Shown piece after piece: positions 25,619 to 34,646 of a DNA stretch of 64,000 nt. The notes under the pieces are model-generated. The model ran no database searches, was not told the origin of the DNA, and saw nothing but the letters and a program-made list of their open reading frames with translations. The first letter of the stretch is position 1. Every line of letters begins with the position of its first letter. The translations under genes were made by a program, and so were the position numbers. The stretch is from Polynucleobacter sp. (GTDB lineage: Bacteria; Pseudomonadota; Gammaproteobacteria; Burkholderiales; Burkholderiaceae), in assembly GCF_040400325.1 (NCBI RefSeq), contig NZ_JBBAQK010000010.1, positions 7,698 through 71,697 of the forward strand, given 5' to 3'.

Positions 25619-27322
<1,704 letters not shown>

Positions 27323-27329
27323 TCTAAGA

Positions 27330-28262
27330 TTACAAGACAAAGAATTGCCCAACTTGTAAATTGAGTTCTTTGGCTAATTCAGCGCCACTGACTTTACCTG
27401 AGGCCCCTTTTGCTTTGAGGACTTCAATTTGACCTCCATGACAGGCAACAAAGAAAGAATCTAGGGTAATGGCAGTTATCTCTCCAGGCTTTCCTTTGAC
27501 CGCCCCAAACGTTGCGACCACATGCTTGTGGCAATCATAGATTTGCACTTTTTGCTCACCCAGCGTAGTCCATGCACCAGGCGCAGGATTACAAGCGCGT
27601 ATCAGGTTATAGATTTGGCTAATATGTATTGCCCAATGAATCTGTGCAGCATTGACATCAAACCAACCTTCGTAATTGGCTTGTGATTCATCTTGAGTGA
27701 TCTCTTGATGCTTGCCTGCTACCACTAGATCGGCTGCTTCTAGTAGCGCTTTCACACCAACAGGGAAAAGATGATCAAAGTAAATTTTGCCTAGAGTGTC
27801 ATCAGGCCCAATAGCCACTTCTTTTTGCAAAATCACTGGACCTTCATCCAGGCCGTCAGAAGGTCGGAAAATAGTTAAACCTGTTTTTTCTTCACCTAAA
27901 GCAATTGCCCAGTTAATCGCGCTCGGACCGCGATATTTTGGCAATAAAGATGGGTGATATTGAATCGTGCCGTGTTTAGGAATCTTGACGAGTTCTTGAG
28001 GCACAAATTGCAAGACATAAGCCATCACGCAGATATCGGCATTGCTATCTATCATGGCCTGAGCAGCATCAGGACCTTTGAGAGAGGAAAACTGCAAAGG
28101 GGTTAAGCCCTTTGCTAGTGCTGCCTCTTTGAGGACTTCGGGCTTAGTGGAATTAGGATTATCAGGCGGACAAAAAACAGCAACGAGCTCATTCCCACGA
28201 TCCAAAAAGGCCTCTAATGCTGCCTTACCAAAATCTGCACTCCCTATCAATGCAACCCGCAT
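27330..28262 (-). CDS. Formyltransferase-fold protein resembling the hydrolase domain of 10-formyl-THF dehydrogenase (would usually be auto-annotated as Fmt)
   Basis: HPSLLPKYRGPSAINW, DGLDEG, PAPGAW. Starts 1 nt after the frc stop. Confidence 0.8.
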   Translation of the reverse strand: MRVALIGSADFGKAALEAFLDRGNELVAVFCPPDNPNSTKPEVLKEAALAKGLTPLQFSSLKGPDAAQAMIDSNADICVMAYVLQFVPQELVKIPKHGTIQYHPSLLPKYRGPSAINWAIALGEEKTGLTIFRPSDGLDEGPVILQKEVAIGPDDTLGKIYFDHLFPVGVKALLEAADLVVAGKHQEITQDESQANYEGWFDVNAAQIHWAIHISQIYNLIRACNPAPGAWTTLGEQKVQIYDCHKHVVATFGAVKGKPGEITAITLDSFFVACHGGQIEVLKAKGASGKVSGAELAKELNLQVGQFFVL

Positions 28263-28263
28263 G

Positions 28264-29511
28264 TTAGATCACCTTATCATGACGTAGTGAAATCAACTCA
28301 TCAGTGGAATAACCTAATTCACTGAGAATTTCATCGGTATGCTCACCTAGTAAGGGCGAACGAGTAACCTCGGTTGGACTATCAGACATCTTGATAGGAT
28401 TACCTACGGTGAGATACTTGCCACGAATTGGGTGGTCCACTTCTACCACTGTGCCAGTAGCACGCAGCGCTGGCTCTTCAGCAATTTCTTTCATCGACAA
28501 AATAGGGCCACAAGGTATGTCGTATTGATTCAAGATATCCATGACTTCGAATTTATTTTTTGTCATGGTCCATTTTTCAATCTCGCCAAAGATTTCCATC
28601 AAGTGGGGTAAGCGTGCCATGGGTGAGGCAAAACGCAAATCAGCAATCCAATCTTCCCGACCGATTACCTTACAAACAGCTTCCCATACTGGCGCTTGAA
28701 TAATCACATACATATAGGCATTTGGATCAGTTTCCCATCCCTTACATTTCACAATCCAACCAGGCTGACCGCCGCTAGAGGCATTACCAGCACGGGGTAC
28801 CGCATCACCAAACTCACCATTTGGATACTGTGGGTACTCTTGCATCACACCAACACGCTCTAAACGCTGTTGATCACGCAATTTGACGCGGCATAAGTTC
28901 AATACAGCATCTTGCATTGCTGCTAATACTTTTTGACCACGACCAGAATGGGTACGCTGATATAAGGCAGTCACAATCCCTAAAGCTAAATGCAAGCCAG
29001 TACCACTATCGCCAATTTGCGCACCAGTGACCATCGGAGGGCCATCATCAAACCCGGTTGTCGAAGCAGAGCCGCCCGCGCATTGCGCTACGTTCTCGTA
29101 CACCTTGCAATCTTCGTATGGGCCAGGACCAAAACCTTTTACAGAAGCCATAATCATCATAGGGTTGAGCTCTTGAATCCGTTCCCAAGAAAATCCCATA
29201 CGATCTAAAGCACCCGGTGCAAAATTCTCAACCAGCACATCACACTCTTTAATTAAGCGCTCAAGAATTTCTTTACCTTTTTGAGTTTTGGTATTTACAG
29301 TAATCGAACGCTTGTTGTGATTGAGCATCGTGAAATACAAACTATCTGCATCAGGGATGTCACGCAATTGGCCGCGGGTTGCATCTCCTTCGCCTGATTT
29401 TTCTACTTTAATGACGTCAGCTCCGAACCAAGCTAGTAGCTGCGTACAAGTTGGTCCTGACTGAACATGAGTAAAGTCGAGGATTTTGACCCCTTCTAGG
29501 GCTTTTGCCAT
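28264..29511 (-). CDS. frc: Formyl-CoA:oxalate CoA-transferase, paralogue 2 (family III)
   Basis: [40 protein letters not shown] (catalytic Asp), [17 protein letters not shown]. Confidence 0.9.
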
Positions 29512-29622
29512 GATTTGCGTCCTAATAAGAATAAAATTTTGAATTGTGACAATTTTACCAGCGAGGAATCAGGCCAGTGAGAGCATGCCAAAATTTTGGG
29601 CAAAGACCGATGTAAAACCTAT

Positions 29623-30066
29623 TTAGGGCTCTATTTTGCTGGACTGAGGATTTTCAAGATCAGCAAGGCGCTTTTTCAAGGTCCGTTCCTCGGCAAAACG
29701 CTCAGTTTCATCGCGAATGACTGCCACCACTCCATTGGCATGATGGTTTTCATCGAATAGCATGCCGACCGTAAATGCAATGGATAGAGTACTGCCATCC
29801 TTGTGCCTGGCCGGAACTTTCAATACAGAAGCTCCATAGCGCGTGGTTCCAGTCAACATCGATTTACTGTAGCCCTCATTATGTCTGTGACGCTGACGCT
29901 CTGGCACGATTAAATCGACGGTATTACCAAGGGCCTCTGCTTCGGAATATCCAAAAATGCGGGTAGCCGCAGCATTCCACAGCACAATCTTTTCATTAGC
30001 ATCGGAAACAATAATGGCGTCTCCTATAGATTGAGCTAGGTGACTCAAATCGATATTCGTATTCAT
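29623..30066 (-). CDS. Stand-alone PAS-domain protein with no output domain
   Basis: DAIIVSD...IVLWNAAATRIFGYSEAEALG..VDLIVP (PAS); HKDGS (PAC); C-terminal coiled coil. 147 aa. Confidence 0.88.
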   Translation of the reverse strand: MNTNIDLSHLAQSIGDAIIVSDANEKIVLWNAAATRIFGYSEAEALGNTVDLIVPERQRHRHNEGYSKSMLTGTTRYGASVLKVPARHKDGSTLSIAFTVGMLFDENHHANGVVAVIRDETERFAEERTLKKRLADLENPQSSKIEP

Positions 30067-30072
30067 ATAGCC

Positions 30073-30078
30073 AGTCTA
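30073..30078 (-). promoter_or_regulatory. Putative extended -10 (TGa-TAGACT), 6 nt before the PAS gene ATG (leaderless candidate)
   Basis: Minus strand TGA-TAGACT-ggctat-ATG, downstream of the frc terminator. Confidence 0.5.
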
Positions 30079-30114
30079 TCAATATTTAGATTGCATCTAG
30101 TATTTTGAGGTGAG

Positions 30115-30142
30115 AAAAAAGGCGCCCACTAGGAGCGCCTTG
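30115..30142 (-). terminator. Intrinsic terminator after the oxc-frc operon
   Basis: Minus strand AAGGCGCTC-CTAGT-GGGCGCCTT followed by a T tract. Confidence 0.85.
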
Positions 30143-30161
30143 AAATGAATGCCTATTATTA

Positions 30162-31412
30162 CTAAACTGCTTTAGCTTCATGCAGCTTAGCAATTTCATC
30201 TTTGCCATAACCAAGATCAGTCAACACTTCATCAGTGTGCTCACCCAACACTGGTGAAGGCTTCACCTCAACCTCTAAATCAGAGAACTTGATTGGGCTA
30301 CCAATAGTTAAATACTTACCACGCACTTTGTGGTCAACTTCAACAATTGAACCGCTCTTACGCAAGTCTGGAGATGCAGCTAATTCCTTCATAGATAACA
30401 CTGGAGCGCATGGGATATCAAACTTACGCAGGATATCTACAGCCTCATACTTAGTCTTGTCTTTAAGCCAATCTTCAATCGTTGCGAAGATATCAAAAAT
30501 TTTATCTTGTCGAGCTTCAGCAGTCATGTACGCAGGATCAGTTGCCCATTCTGGCTTACCTAAAGCTGTAGTAATTGGCTCCCAAGCATGGCCTTGAATG
30601 GTGAAATAGATATATGCGTTTGGATCAGTTTCCCATCCCTTACACTTCAATACCCAACCTGGCTGACCGCCGCCACCAGCATTACCACCGCGTGGTACTA
30701 CATCAGAGAATGTGCCATGCGGGTACTGTGGATACTCTTCTAAATAGCCAATCTTATCTAAACGCTGCTGATCACGCAATTTCACGCGGCATAAGTTCAA
30801 TACTGCATCTTGCATTGAGCAAGAAACCTTTTGACCTTTGCCTGTTTTTTGACGTTGCATCAACGCAGTCAAAATACCGATTGCTAAATGCATACCAGTA
30901 TTAGAATCGCCCAAAGCTGCAGCAGAAACAGTCGGAGGACCATCCCAGAAACCGGTTGTTGAAGCAGCACCACCGGCACACTGAGCAACGTTCTCATACA
31001 CTTTTAAGTCTTCATATGAGTGGCCATCGCTAAAACCTTTTACTGATGCCAAAATCATTTTTGGATTGAGTTCTTGAATACGCTTCCAAGAGAAACCCAT
31101 ACGATCTAAAGCGCCAGGACCAAAGTTCTCAACCATGACATCAGAAACTTTGATCATCTTTTCTAATACTTCCTTACCCTCTGGAGTTTTGGTATCCAAA
31201 GTCAAAGAACGCTTATTACCGTTTAGCATAGTGAAGTACAAAGCATCTACGCCTGGGATGTCACGTAATTGACTACGAGTAACGTCGCCAGAACCTGGAC
31301 GCTCAACCTTAATCACGTCAGCCCCATAAAAGCCCAATAATTGAGTGCATGCAGGACCCGCTTGAACGTGGGTGAAGTCAATGATGCGAATACCGTCTAA
31401 TGGTTTAGTCAT
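30162..31412 (-). CDS. frc: Formyl-CoA:oxalate CoA-transferase, paralogue 1
   Basis: [26 protein letters not shown] (catalytic Asp), NAGGGGQPG tetraglycine loop. Confidence 0.95.
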
Positions 31413-31454
31413 GTTTATTTCTCCTTAAGTATTACGTATTTAGCTTTAGTAAAA

Positions 31455-33164
31455 TTATTTCTTAGCAGCTGCAGAAGATGGGTTTAAGTTTGTTAAACGC
31501 CCACTTTCAGTACCCGCAGTTTCATCAATAACAGCATTGATGAGGGCAGGTTTACCAGCAGCGATTGCTTCTGTTAACGCTACTTCTAATTCTGCTGGAG
31601 TAGTTACGTAGTAACCCACTCCACCAAATGCTTCGATCATCTTGTCGTAACGAGCATTTTTTACGAATACGGTCGGAGCAACATCAGCGCCGCCGGTTGG
31701 GTTCACGTCGGTGCCACGGTATACGCCGTTATTATTGAAAACAACTGTAGTGATTGGCAAGTTGTAACGGCAAATAGTTTCTAATTCCATGCCGCTAAAG
31801 CCAAATGCGCTATCGCCCTCGACTGCAACGGTTGGCAAGTTACTGATCACTGAAGCGCCAATCGCATAGCCCATACCAATACCCATAATGCCCCAGGTAC
31901 CGGAGTCAAAACGCTTACGCGGCTTATACATATTCACAATCGCACGGCAGAAGTCCAGCGTGTTTGCGCCCTCGTTTACTAAGTTCACATCAGGGTTCTT
32001 CTTAATCACATCACGAATCGCACGTAATGCCCCATGGAAGTTCATTGGACTTACGTCTTTGGCAAGTGTCTCTGCCATCTTCGCCATGTTCTTGTCTTTT
32101 TTCTCATTGATTGCTGAAATCCATTCAACGCTTGGCTTGGGAACAGAAGCAATGCCTTTTAACAATTCACCAACGCATGAACCAATGTCACCAATCAATG
32201 GTGCGGAAATTTGTACGTTGCTATCAACTTCATTGGCCTGAATATCGATCTGAATAAATTTCTTAGGCTCCTTGCCCCAGGTCTTGCCCTTTCCATGAGC
32301 CAATAACCAGTTCAAGCGCGCACCAATTAATAAGACTGTGTCAGCCTCTGCTAAAACAAACGAGCGGGCTGGGGATGCAGTTTGAGGATGATCATCTGGC
32401 AATAAACCTTTTGCCATCGACATTGGCAAGTAAGGAATACCAGACTTCTCGATCAAGTCACGGATCTCTTTATCAGCCTGCGCATAAGCGGCGCCTTTGC
32501 CCAAGAGAATCAATGGACGTTTAGCGCCTTTGAGTACATCTAATGCACGCGCTACAGCATCAGCTGCTGGAATCTGGCGCGGCACGGGATCGATTACTTT
32601 GAAAATAGACTTCTTTGCCTCTTCGGCTGGCATAGTTTGGGCTAATAACTGTGCAGGCAGGTCTAAATACACTCCGCCTGGACGACCTGAAACCGCAGCG
32701 CGAATGGCACGTGCAAAACCAATACCGATATCTTCAATGTGATTAATACGATAAGCTGCTTTACAATATGGCTTAGCAGCATTGAGCTGATCCATCTCTT
32801 CATAGTCGCCCTGTTGTAAGTCAACAATTTCACGCTCACTTGAGCCACTAATCAAAATCATCGGGAAACAATTCACAGTTGCATTGGCAAGTGCTGTTAA
32901 ACCATTTAAGAATCCTGGTGCAGAAACCGTCATACAAATACCAGGCTTTTGAGTCATGAAGCCTGCAATTGCTGCGGCATTACCTGCGTGTTGCTCATGA
33001 CGGAAACCAATAAAGCGTATTCCTTCAGCTTGAGCCAAACGACACAAGTCAGTTATTGGAATGCCAACCAGACCAAAAATAGTGTTGAGATCATTCGCTT
33101 TCAAAGCATCGATGACCAGATGAAAGCCATCAGTTAATTGTGTGTTTTGAGTATCTGTTGTCAT
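31455..33164 (-). CDS. oxc: Oxalyl-CoA decarboxylase (ThDP-dependent)
   Basis: [50 protein letters not shown]...NNNG, GTESG. Confidence 0.96.
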
Positions 33165-33289
33165 AGAAATTTTTTATACATTACAAAGGCTTATGCAGGG
33201 ACTAAATCCCTGTAGTGTCGCTTTCGCTATTGGTCTTCCATTAAGTTATTTATTGCATGCTGAGTTCAACCCAGCTTAGGCAGAGATGA

Positions 33290-33332
33290 ATATTAGGCTT
33301 GAGGAAGAGGATGATCATTGACTTCGGTCAAT
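33290..33332 (-). promoter_or_regulatory. Class II Crp/Fnr-type promoter of oxc: ATTGAC-N4-GTCAAT box (33317-33332) and -10 TAATAT (33295-33290)
   Basis: The palindrome resembles the FNR consensus TTGAT-N4-ATCAA. If the TANNNT hexamer is at -12..-7, the box centre falls at -41.5. Confidence 0.7.
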
Positions 33333-33366
33333 TTCCCCCAAATCCAGCGCCCCAAAGGGAAATTGT

Positions 33367-33984
33367 TTAGATAAAAAGCTCTTTATGCTTCGTTTTAAGG
33401 CGGCTCAAAGTCTCTGGTGAGAGGTTGAGGTAGGCTGCCAGCTCCTTTTTAGGGAGGAGCTCAAACAAGTTCTCATATTTTCGTAAGAAACGCTCTACCC
33501 GACCTGGAGCATCTAGCATATGCAAGGTAATGGTGTGAGCCATAATTTCACTCATCAGGCGCATTACCTCAAGCTCAAAAGTCTCCTTCAGAAGCTTATG
33601 CTCTTCCAGAAATTCAGCCCATTTTTTCATAGGCATGCGAGCCACACGGGTTTTGTTAACGCATGCAATACTGTAGGGGGCAGCCGTTTTAAGGCGCCAA
33701 GCAGCATAGCTAGTTTCGATATCTTTTTCGATAGCAAAACGCAAGATCATCTCTTTAGCGTCAGGACTAGAGACAATGCGCTTGAGAATACCGTCTAGAA
33801 CAAAGTATTGCTCCATCTGATGATCCCCTTGATGGAGCAATATTTCGGATTTTTTGAGATCTGATATCTCTAAAAGGCGCTCTAAATCAGCCATAACAGC
33901 CTGATCCAAGCTTTTAAGCACCGAATTTTGGCTCAACTGCAAGCGAATCAGGTTTTTTTCTGGGTGCCTATCTAATGCGGTCAT
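33367..33984 (-). CDS. Crp/Fnr-family transcriptional regulator
   Basis: cNMP-like domain (LLHQGD..YFVLDGILK) and HTH ELAAYLNLSPETLSRL (FNR-like ExxSR). No N-terminal Cys cluster. Confidence 0.9.
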   Translation of the reverse strand: MTALDRHPEKNLIRLQLSQNSVLKSLDQAVMADLERLLEISDLKKSEILLHQGDHQMEQYFVLDGILKRIVSSPDAKEMILRFAIEKDIETSYAAWRLKTAAPYSIACVNKTRVARMPMKKWAEFLEEHKLLKETFELEVMRLMSEIMAHTITLHMLDAPGRVERFLRKYENLFELLPKKELAAYLNLSPETLSRLKTKHKELFI

Positions 33985-34079: not shown

Positions 34080-34646
34080 TCAAATATTGCGATTCATGTT
34101 GGGGCAGTTAATGAGCTCAAACTCGCCAAAGCCAATAACGTACTCAGGCCAGTCATTTGCATCTTTTAAGACCTTCTGACCACTTTTCATTAAAAAATGA
34201 AGTGCTCGTATGACTCCTGCATGAGTAATCAAAATAATCTCATCAATACCCTCAAGCTCTAACAGCATTGATTTAATTCTATGAATAAACCCCTGAACAC
34301 ACTCCTCGCCACCAAAAAAATGGCTCGGGAACGATTGAACCCATGCATCAATTTCAGCCTTTGGAATATCGCTCCAAAGTACCCCTTCCCAAACGCCGAA
34401 ATTAAACTCGTTTAATCTGCAGTCACTTTGAACAATTGCGTTAGGTCTGAGTATCTGAATCGCCTTCGCTAGGGATAGAGATCGAATCAGGCCTGAAGAA
34501 TAAATTGGCAAATTCTCAGGCAACTGACCCGATAGAGATTGAGCCAAGGAATCCAATTGAGATCTGTCGATCTCTAGATCAAGTTGCCCATAGCAGACAC
34601 CACTAGCCACTAAAGGTTTTGGATGACGGACTACCCAAATCTTCAT
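34080..34646 (-). CDS. cobC: Histidine phosphatase family, putative alpha-ribazole phosphatase
   Basis: VVRH, YSSGLIRS, LNEFNFGVWEG, ITHAGVIR. Last gene of the cob operon. Confidence 0.75.
   Translation of the reverse strand: MKIWVVRHPKPLVASGVCYGQLDLEIDRSQLDSLAQSLSGQLPENLPIYSSGLIRSLSLAKAIQILRPNAIVQSDCRLNEFNFGVWEGVLWSDIPKAEIDAWVQSFPSHFFGGEECVQGFIHRIKSMLLELEGIDEIILITHAGVIRALHFLMKSGQKVLKDANDWPEYVIGFGEFELINCPNMNRNI

Follow-up and report, generated by a model that had tools for sequence, protein, structure and literature searches.

Gene content of the oxalate module

We have analyzed a stretch of 64,000 nucleotides of Polynucleobacter DNA (G000:C10:7698-71697; "the window" refers to this whole stretch), taken from an assembly of 2.24 Mb that is 92.8% complete. 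The system in question is an oxalate module of six genes in the middle of this window. Among the photoproducts of humic matter, and among the acids of plants and fungi, oxalate is a major one. In the classic cycle, formyl-CoA:oxalate CoA-transferase (Frc) converts oxalate and formyl-CoA into oxalyl-CoA and formate, and oxalyl-CoA decarboxylase (Oxc) converts oxalyl-CoA into formyl-CoA and CO2. In our view, this segment probably forms the catabolic core of an oxalate regulon that is dispersed over the genome and under the control of a Crp/Fnr-type regulator.

The six open reading frames (ORFs) were confirmed between 27330 and 33984, all on the minus strand. An earlier note, made from the sequence alone, had listed a Crp/Fnr regulator, oxc, frc1, a terminator, a PAS gene, frc2, and a formyltransferase gene on this strand, between panC and the cob operon, and every one of these features was found again, as follows.

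33367..33984, minus strand: Crp/Fnr-family regulator, 205 amino acids (aa); PF00027 (cNMP-binding domain), 31.9 bits, and a C-terminal helix-turn-helix (HTH)
33318..33331, minus strand: Crp/Fnr-type box TTGACCGAAGTCAA, of the TTGAC-N4-GTCAA type; a TAATAT -10 hexamer lies about 22 nt downstream (33290-33295)
31455..33164, minus strand: oxc, oxalyl-CoA decarboxylase; TIGR03254, 982 bits (cut-off 739); NF006721, 1012 bits (cut-off 557)
30162..31412, minus strand: frc1, canonical formyl-CoA:oxalate CoA-transferase; TIGR03253, 728 bits (cut-off 504)
30119..30141, minus strand: strong intrinsic terminator closing the oxc-frc1 unit; nine-pair stem and T-run
29623..30066, minus strand: PAS-only protein with a FixL/DosP-type (haem) PAS domain, 147 aa
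29552..29602, minus strand: frc2 promoter region; palindrome TGCCCAAAATTTTGGCA at 29586-29602 and extended -10 element TGgTAAAAT at 29552-29560
28264..29511, minus strand: frc2, of a distinct Frc subfamily; TIGR03253, 730 bits (cut-off 504)
27330..28262, minus strand: fmtL, Fmt-like formyltransferase, 310 aa; Formyl_trans_N and Formyl_trans_C
26471-27322, plus strand: panC, flanking gene
34080-34646, minus strand: cobC-like flanking gene

The oxc gene is present as a single copy in the genome, and its product contains the TPP_enzyme_N, _M, and _C domains. A candidate second oxc on contig C33 was rejected, being only 27% identical. The product of frc1 scored 680 bits against E. coli YfdW and keeps both canonical motifs, including the glycine-rich loop of the GGGGQ type. 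The two transferases, frc1 and frc2, are 64% identical, and both retain the catalytic Asp of the GDS motif. The ATG of fmtL lies one base past the frc2 stop codon.

The ORF and family scans bear out a further statement of the earlier note, namely that OxlT, reductase, and ligase genes are missing from the module: no transporter, PanE-like reductase, or AMP-ligase gene lies within 27330-33984, oxalate-CoA ligase itself not having been searched for. An Rfam scan of the module and of the conserved oxc leader gave no match. Three Polynucleobacter genomes agree in the surroundings of the module on the panC side but differ on the crp side: only this genome has the cob operon there, and other genes take its place in G182 and G091 (L080 and L081, compared with the window from 34080 onward).

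Distribution of the module and its transporters

We queried 301 Burkholderiales genomes with fmtL and collected a set of 80 named loci, of which 66 are non-Polynucleobacter and 14 are Polynucleobacter-type. The Burkholderiales tallies include three unpublished genomes (G026, G205, and G294), and no individual claim rests on these three. The result of the search was bimodal: 59 of the 301 genomes carry an orthologue (51-65% identity, higher within the genus), and the rest gave only Fmt, at 153 bits or less. The gene directly follows a frc2-type gene in 26 of 29 loci fetched from other genomes (27 of them from other genera), often in the order oxc-frc2-fmtL, and a frc gene is directly upstream in 54 of the 66 non-Polynucleobacter loci. 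The dominant layout elsewhere is terC-tctC-tctB-tctA-crp-oxc-frc2-fmtL, which occurs in Comamonadaceae, Hylemonella, Polaromonas, Rhodoferax, Usitatibacter, Nitrosomonadales, and many metagenome-assembled genomes (MAGs), and versions with 58-64% identity are present in Methylobacterium, Pseudaminobacter, and Acidobacteriota.

The comparison across Burkholderiales that the earlier note had proposed thus shows a widespread module that normally has a linked transporter. Among the 66 non-Polynucleobacter loci, an orthologue of the tripartite transporter component TctA was found in 26 and a major facilitator superfamily (MFS) gene in 9; the two members of that MFS cluster that were scored exceed the cut-off of the OxlT model (386 and 605 bits; TIGR04259, cut-off 335). 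In contrast, neither transporter lies within 9 kb in any of the 14 Polynucleobacter-type loci. Therefore, the absence of a linked transporter is a trait of the genus Polynucleobacter and not of the module. At the level of genomes, the TctA orthologue is present in 43 of the 59 Burkholderiales genomes with fmtL and in 24 of the 242 without it. When both genes are on the same contig, TctA lies within 3-7 kb of fmtL in 27 of 29 cases, the two exceptions being Polynucleobacter.

Two side observations concern these loci. In eight Acidobacteriota loci from Bryobacteraceae, Terriglobia, and Solibacteraceae MAGs (L114, L131, L137, L142, L147, L150, L157, and L158), a thiamine diphosphate (ThDP) enzyme about 26% identical to Oxc precedes frc2-fmtL, so that the decarboxylase seems to be replaced by a different ThDP enzyme; in four of the eight, an MFS gene 35-43% identical to the OxlT query comes after. 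Several Burkholderiales loci (L065:3225-5759, L073:10423-15293, and similar ones) carry beside fmtL a signalling block consisting of a CHASE2 Ser/Thr kinase, a PP2C phosphatase, an FHA protein, a metallo-beta-lactamase-fold protein, and a GAF-MshEN-T2SSE ATPase.

In the genome studied here, a tblastn search with the linked TctC, TctB, and TctA proteins found orthologues at C10:3-2898 (72%, 46%, and 80% identical, respectively), just left of the window and 35 kb from the module. Other paralogues in the genome are at most 39% identical. TctC matches Pfam PF03401, TctA and TctB were compared with Pfam-verified orthologues, and tctA is cut off by the end of contig C10 at about residue 407 of 502. 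No OxlT above the cut-off was found in this assembly, where the best score was 72.7 bits at C6:113270, and the profile search found oxlT absent from the other 53 contigs. An MFS gene at C6:113225-114457, beside a ThDP enzyme, was considered as a hidden OxlT and rejected, scoring about 72 bits on the OxlT model and being lactate-transporter-like; the adjacent ThDP enzyme is of the PRK08199 type and about 26% identical to Oxc.

Within the genus, 151 Polynucleobacter genomes were surveyed, and OxlT was searched for in the 141 of high quality. On the one hand, fmtL is present in 111 of the 151 genomes and the TctA orthologue in 83, of which 77 also carry fmtL; the distance between fmtL and tctA is 27-50 kb in 27 complete genomes. 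On the other hand, OxlT is present in 42 of the 141 genomes, and all 20 high-quality genomes with fmtL and without TctA carry an OxlT match (537-647 bits), although in one of them, G328, oxlT is broken by two stop codons. Four genomes carry both transporters. The regions that we fetched share a single chromosomal site, with DUF1854, an ABC transporter gene, and orf6265 as its flanks, in which either carrier or both are found: tctCBA in G000 and G182, tctCBA and oxlT in G315, and oxlT alone in G091 and G421. That one carrier replaces the other at the same position is the strongest argument for oxalate as the cargo of the tripartite system. Together with the linkage, the co-occurrence, and the shared operator described below, it leads us to infer that TctCBA is the oxalate importer of this strain.

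Some further features of the transporter loci were observed. In the divergent lineage G320 (fmtL 69% identical; C66:1755-6165), tctA is only 2 kb from fmtL, which suggests that the separation of 27-50 kb in the rest of the genus is derived. A tRNA-Thr(CGT) gene at C10:3176-3251 (L082), upstream of the tctC promoter region, lies between tctC and the DUF1854 and ABC transporter genes, and it could mark an integration or rearrangement point of the swappable site. Two complete genomes of 1.7-1.8 Mb, G328 and G443, gave partial fmtL matches (residues 84-287 and 87-309, in frames of 217 and 231 aa), which looks like an oxalate system decaying in reduced genomes.

Regulator, operator, and transcription units

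The C-terminal HTH of the Crp-like protein ends in SPETLSRLK and places an FNR-type E--SR recognition helix at the extreme C-terminus. The protein has no FNR-type N-terminal cysteine cluster for an Fe-S center, and only a single Cys in its whole length. Its orthologues (51-65% identity) adjoin oxc in 27 of the 66 non-Polynucleobacter loci.

The box in front of oxc has only four exact copies in the genome and is invariant across the aligned Polynucleobacter loci. Of 20 loci from other genera, at least 14 also have it upstream of oxc, and two of them have it upstream of tctC. When the genome was scanned with one mismatch allowed, 101 matches were obtained, only 12 of them intergenic. Three of these 12 precede oxc (exact), tctC (TTGACTGACATCAA), and the operon of an NAD-linked formate dehydrogenase (TTGAGCGGCGTCAA). 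The tctC box is about 60 bp upstream of the listed TTG start, and the same box occurs before tctC in G182; the formate dehydrogenase box is about 150 bp upstream of the fdsB-like gene. A box of this type was also found about 125-145 bp upstream of oxlT in G091, G315, and G421, which are all three of the oxlT-bearing sites fetched. Five other intergenic boxes with a downstream gene were rejected as regulon sites and treated as chance matches or sites of other regulators. These precede unrelated genes, for a solute-binding protein, a sulfatase, a divergent pair of glutathione peroxidase and cytidylyltransferase-like proteins, and a heptosyltransferase.

The proposal of the earlier note that the transcription units are separately regulated is supported. 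The terminator hairpin after frc1 is kept in an alignment of 10 Polynucleobacter loci, and within the module the Crp-type box occurs before oxc only. The palindrome of frc2, which differs from the Crp box, and its extended -10 element are kept in most (8-10) of 10 aligned Polynucleobacter loci in the midst of variable flanking sequence. This conservation supports a predicted control of the frc2-fmtL unit that is separate from that of oxc-frc1.

As a side observation, the 5' leader of oxc, of about 120 nt (33165-33290, minus strand), contains a block conserved across Polynucleobacter and a small hairpin. The consensus of this block includes AGCGAAAGCTAAATTGCA, and the corresponding sequence in this strain is AGCGAAAGCGACACTACA.

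Formate oxidation and assimilation genes

The NAD-linked formate dehydrogenase operon is located at C1:520742-525468. A gcl gene (1123 bits) was found at C1:286139, unlinked to the module; a divergent LysR-family gene lies beside it, and no hyi or tsr partner is present at the locus. Two PanE-like genes occur in the genome, one at C5:130535-131551 and the other a housekeeping PanE on C8. As a proxy reference, we used a PanE-like gene of G266, a same-family genome of 7 Mb; the gene stands in an oxalate cluster that contains oxlT twice, PAS-frc1-oxc, a FAH-family gene, frc, GntR, and the PanE-like gene itself. The C5 reductase is 48% identical to this proxy over its full length and C8 PanE is 24% identical; the C5 reductase and the G266 gene both match subfamily NF005089.

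Of the 111 Polynucleobacter genomes that bear the module, 107 have a reductase of the C5 type, against 7 of the 40 that lack the module; most of these seven are incomplete assemblies. Two genomes without the module carry the gene as a fragment or broken by stop codons. The apbA2 gene of C. necator, which lies near the frc-oxc operon, shows 51% identity to M. extorquens PanE2, and normal growth of that species on oxalate requires it (PMC7486775). From its relatives and its distribution, the C5 gene is a candidate PanE2/ApbA2-like oxalyl-CoA reductase. It stands in a satellite locus at C5:129017-132417 (L027:4018-7418) with genes for a sodium:solute symporter and a FAH-family protein, the latter with 45% identity to its FAH counterpart in the G266 cluster (L163). 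The genome scan found no Crp-type box before this locus.

The earlier note had proposed a search of the genome for oxlT, panE2, gcl, and fdh, and had allowed for canonical genes elsewhere and an ordinary, already described layout. The outcome was mixed: the genome does have gcl, the formate dehydrogenase, and the PanE2-like candidate at other places, and no oxlT was found in the assembly. The crp-oxc-frc2-fmtL layout is common in genomes, with more than 600 loci matched, but we found no description of it in the searchable literature.

The frc2 subfamily and the FmtL protein

The frc2 subfamily carries the loop signature AGN[AD]S[GS]GGQ, which differs from the canonical GGGGQ-type loop of frc1, and its second signature is also distinct. 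This type is the only Frc in five oxc-bearing genomes that were tested, all of them without OxlT. Therefore, it must be able to run the cycle alone.

FmtL fails the Fmt equivalog TIGR00460 (155 bits against a cut-off of 201.5), and a genuine fmt-like gene, 29% identical to fmtL, is present at C1:168254. The best solved relative of FmtL is the hydrolase domain of 10-formyltetrahydrofolate dehydrogenase (2BW0; 171 bits, E = 4e-49), and Fmt scored 130 bits. His103 and Ser105 are invariant and Asp139 is at least 90% conserved in 20 FmtL orthologues, in the motif IQYHPSLLP and as the Asp of GLDEG. The Asn of the NxH motif of Fmt and GART is absent, the motif in FmtL being IQYHPS. The AlphaFold model (pLDDT 94.3) has a two-lobed formyltransferase fold. 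A fold search did not discriminate when used to place FmtL among Fmt, ArnA, ALDH1L1, and HypX, with TM-scores of 0.82-0.92 for the first three and 0.7 for HypX; against the ALDH1L1-type domain, the TM-score is 0.82-0.86. The active-site motif and the sequence score, not the fold, are what discriminates among these families.

The N-terminal domain of ALDH1L1 moves the formyl group from 10-formyltetrahydrofolate to a phosphopantetheine thiol, as does that of HypX. Because of this precedent, the most economical reading is that FmtL would act as a reversible formyltransferase between formyl-CoA and tetrahydrofolate (THF). In the genome, neither a formate-THF ligase nor PurU was found above the cut-off, and there is no YfdE equivalog (best 297 bits, cut-off 522). 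FmtL shares the His-Ser-Asp triad (YHPSLLP/GLDxG) with ALDH1L1 at 31-33% identity, and the two-lobed fold is also shared with HypX's N-terminal domain. However, carrier and aldehyde dehydrogenase domains are fused to it in ALDH1L1 and an enoyl-CoA-hydratase-like domain in HypX, whereas FmtL is a stand-alone protein of two lobes only. Unlike both, it is encoded directly after a formyl-CoA transferase gene.

The PAS protein

The closest solved relatives of the 147-aa PAS protein are all haem-PAS oxygen sensors (FixL and DosP), and the proximal His aligns (RHRHN in the PAS protein, RHEHD/RSRHD in these relatives). In FixL and DosP, a kinase or phosphodiesterase output is attached, but the protein encoded here has no output domain and stands alone. 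The gene is present in 10 of the 14 Polynucleobacter-type loci and absent from at least three with intact frc1-frc2 flanks (G091, L092, and L095). An oxc-frc1-PAS unit also occurs in G007, G266, and one Comamonadaceae MAG. It is a conjecture that this predicted haem-PAS protein adds a gas or redox input.

Proposed mechanism and alternative explanations

In the dispersed regulon that we consider probable, the Crp-like protein would act at cognate TTGAC-N4-GTCAA boxes before oxc, tctCBA, and the formate dehydrogenase operon. TctCBA would import oxalate and the Oxc/Frc cycle would degrade it, while the formate dehydrogenase would oxidize the formate to CO2 with formation of NADH, so that the main yield would be energy. 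The unlinked PanE2/ApbA2-like reductase and gcl may connect oxalyl-CoA and glyoxylate. FmtL, by shifting formyl groups between formyl-CoA and THF, may prime or top up the cycle or feed the one-carbon pool.

More tentatively, and with somewhat less than even confidence, we propose that the system includes two undescribed functions: an oxalate-importing TctCBA that can be swapped with OxlT at one site, and a stand-alone FmtL that exchanges formyl groups between formyl-CoA and THF as an ATP-free one-carbon bridge. In this proposal, the Cys-less Crp/Fnr protein would serve as the switch, possibly together with the haem-PAS protein.

Several points weigh against the dispersed regulon. The TctC ligand, the reaction of FmtL and its direction, and the effector of the regulator are all inferred. 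In growth tests, oxalate was not assimilated by the type strains of four Polynucleobacter species (PMC5018217, PMC3308952), one of which, P. duraquae, encodes an fmtL orthologue that is 88% identical. The tctC and formate dehydrogenase boxes each have one mismatch, and about 100 such matches occur genome-wide. The TctA orthologue is also present in the 24 sampled Burkholderiales genomes without fmtL, and related genomes are not independent, so that the co-occurrence statistics (Fisher tests) overstate the support. Finally, the assembly is 92.8% complete and C10 ends inside tctA, where oxlT follows in G315; an oxlT gene there is possible. With regard to the growth tests, use of oxalate for energy only at low concentrations, or unmet induction conditions, would reconcile non-growth with the dispersed regulon.

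Non-growth would also be reconciled by another explanation, in which the module mainly burns internal glyoxylate or glycolate. Here, the PanE2/ApbA2-like enzyme would work in reverse (glyoxylate and CoA to oxalyl-CoA), followed by Oxc, Frc, and formate dehydrogenase, with CO2 as the product. The route through oxalyl-CoA decarboxylation has been demonstrated in Cupriavidus necator (PMC7486775). The PanE2-like reductase co-occurs with the module almost perfectly, a near-cut-off glcD is present in the genome (532 bits against 568), the transporter is unlinked to the module in this genus, and the type strains do not grow on oxalate (PMC5018217). However, the same type strains also fail on glycolate, and three of the four fail on glyoxylate. 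Also, no Crp-type box was found at the reductase locus. The module is accompanied by a dedicated transporter site with the same operator, which holds a true OxlT oxalate:formate antiporter in at least a quarter of the congeners, and this speaks for a substrate from outside. We rank the glyoxylate explanation lower and consider it unlikely, since the module never occurs without a regulated transporter, often a true OxlT.

Less likely still, and improbable in our judgement, is a role in detoxification or acid tolerance like that of E. coli yfdXWUVE, in which oxalate enters passively and the cycle consumes protons without a gain of energy or carbon. It would fit the tested strains that do not grow on oxalate (PMC5018217, PMC3308952), the acidic humic ponds inhabited by some Polynucleobacter species, and the closeness of Oxc and Frc to E. 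coli YfdU and YfdW. No YfdE equivalog was found in the genome, as described above, and the operator is shared by a high-affinity binding-protein transporter and an NADH-yielding formate dehydrogenase, which fits energy scavenging instead. The co-occurrence of the reductase also suggests a link to glyoxylate metabolism.

A literally self-contained module with uptake and assimilation by wholly novel proteins agrees with the lack of a transporter or reductase within 27330-33984 and of an OxlT above the cut-off in the assembly, but it is very improbable and already largely refuted, since tctCBA, the PanE2-like reductase, gcl, and the formate dehydrogenase are candidates from known families that occur together with the module or share its regulation. 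The earlier note had called the module self-contained and its uptake and assimilation components unlinked or novel. Instead, it is one piece of an operator-sharing regulon, with the transporter physically attached in most relatives; the components are indeed unlinked, and tctCBA, the C5 reductase, and gcl can be named, but they are not wholly novel, as they belong to known families.

Significance and comparison with known systems

Environmental surveys score oxalotrophy by oxc, frc, and oxlT. If Burkholderiales and other groups in fact usually import oxalate by a tripartite transporter, most oxalate users escape surveys that are based on oxlT. Polynucleobacter offers a natural experiment, with either carrier or both at one site and under one operator, and the transporter idea is testable in culturable strains. 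The frc2-fmtL pair suggests an uncharacterized link between formyl-CoA and folate, of interest to one-carbon metabolism and to synthetic formate assimilation. The dispersed regulon, if true, would also help to explain how energy may be gained from oxalate in an abundant freshwater genus that is reported as non-growing on it.

According to a 2024 review of oxalotrophy, oxc-frc operons in some cases include a gene for a transporter or a CoA-transferase, and the carrier is OxlT; neither a tripartite transporter nor a formyltransferase is mentioned there (PMC13409138). In the searchable literature, we found no report of oxalate uptake by a tripartite transporter or by TctC. The Salmonella TctCBA citrate transporter and the Bug-family systems of Bordetella have the same three-component architecture (Pfam TctC and TctA), but here oxalate is the cargo suggested by the genomic partner and the operator.

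The oxc/frc/oxlT system of Oxalobacter formigenes has the same Oxc and Frc chemistry, and a true OxlT serves the same module in some congeners of our strain. In contrast to O. formigenes, this strain was found with TctCBA, two Frc paralogues, an Fmt-like enzyme, a Crp-type regulator, and a haem-type PAS protein, and formate is probably oxidized by the NAD-linked dehydrogenase rather than exported. The oxalotrophs Cupriavidus necator and Methylobacterium extorquens share the same set of Oxc, Frc, PanE2-type candidate, gcl, and NAD-linked formate dehydrogenase, and Polynucleobacter is in the family of Cupriavidus. However, the genes are spread here over at least four loci, unlike the arrangement with apbA2 near frc-oxc; hyi and tsr do not stand beside gcl; and growth on oxalate is absent in the Polynucleobacter strains tested. 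E. coli yfdXWUVE likewise combines an oxc-frc operon with a second CoA-transferase-type gene that supplies the cycle. Neither a YfdE equivalog nor YfdX was found here, and a Crp/Fnr-type box takes the place of EvgA control; the supply role of the second E. coli transferase is probably taken by frc2 and a folate-dependent FmtL. What this window adds to these known systems is the dispersed form of the regulon and the exchange of tctCBA and oxlT at one site within a genus.

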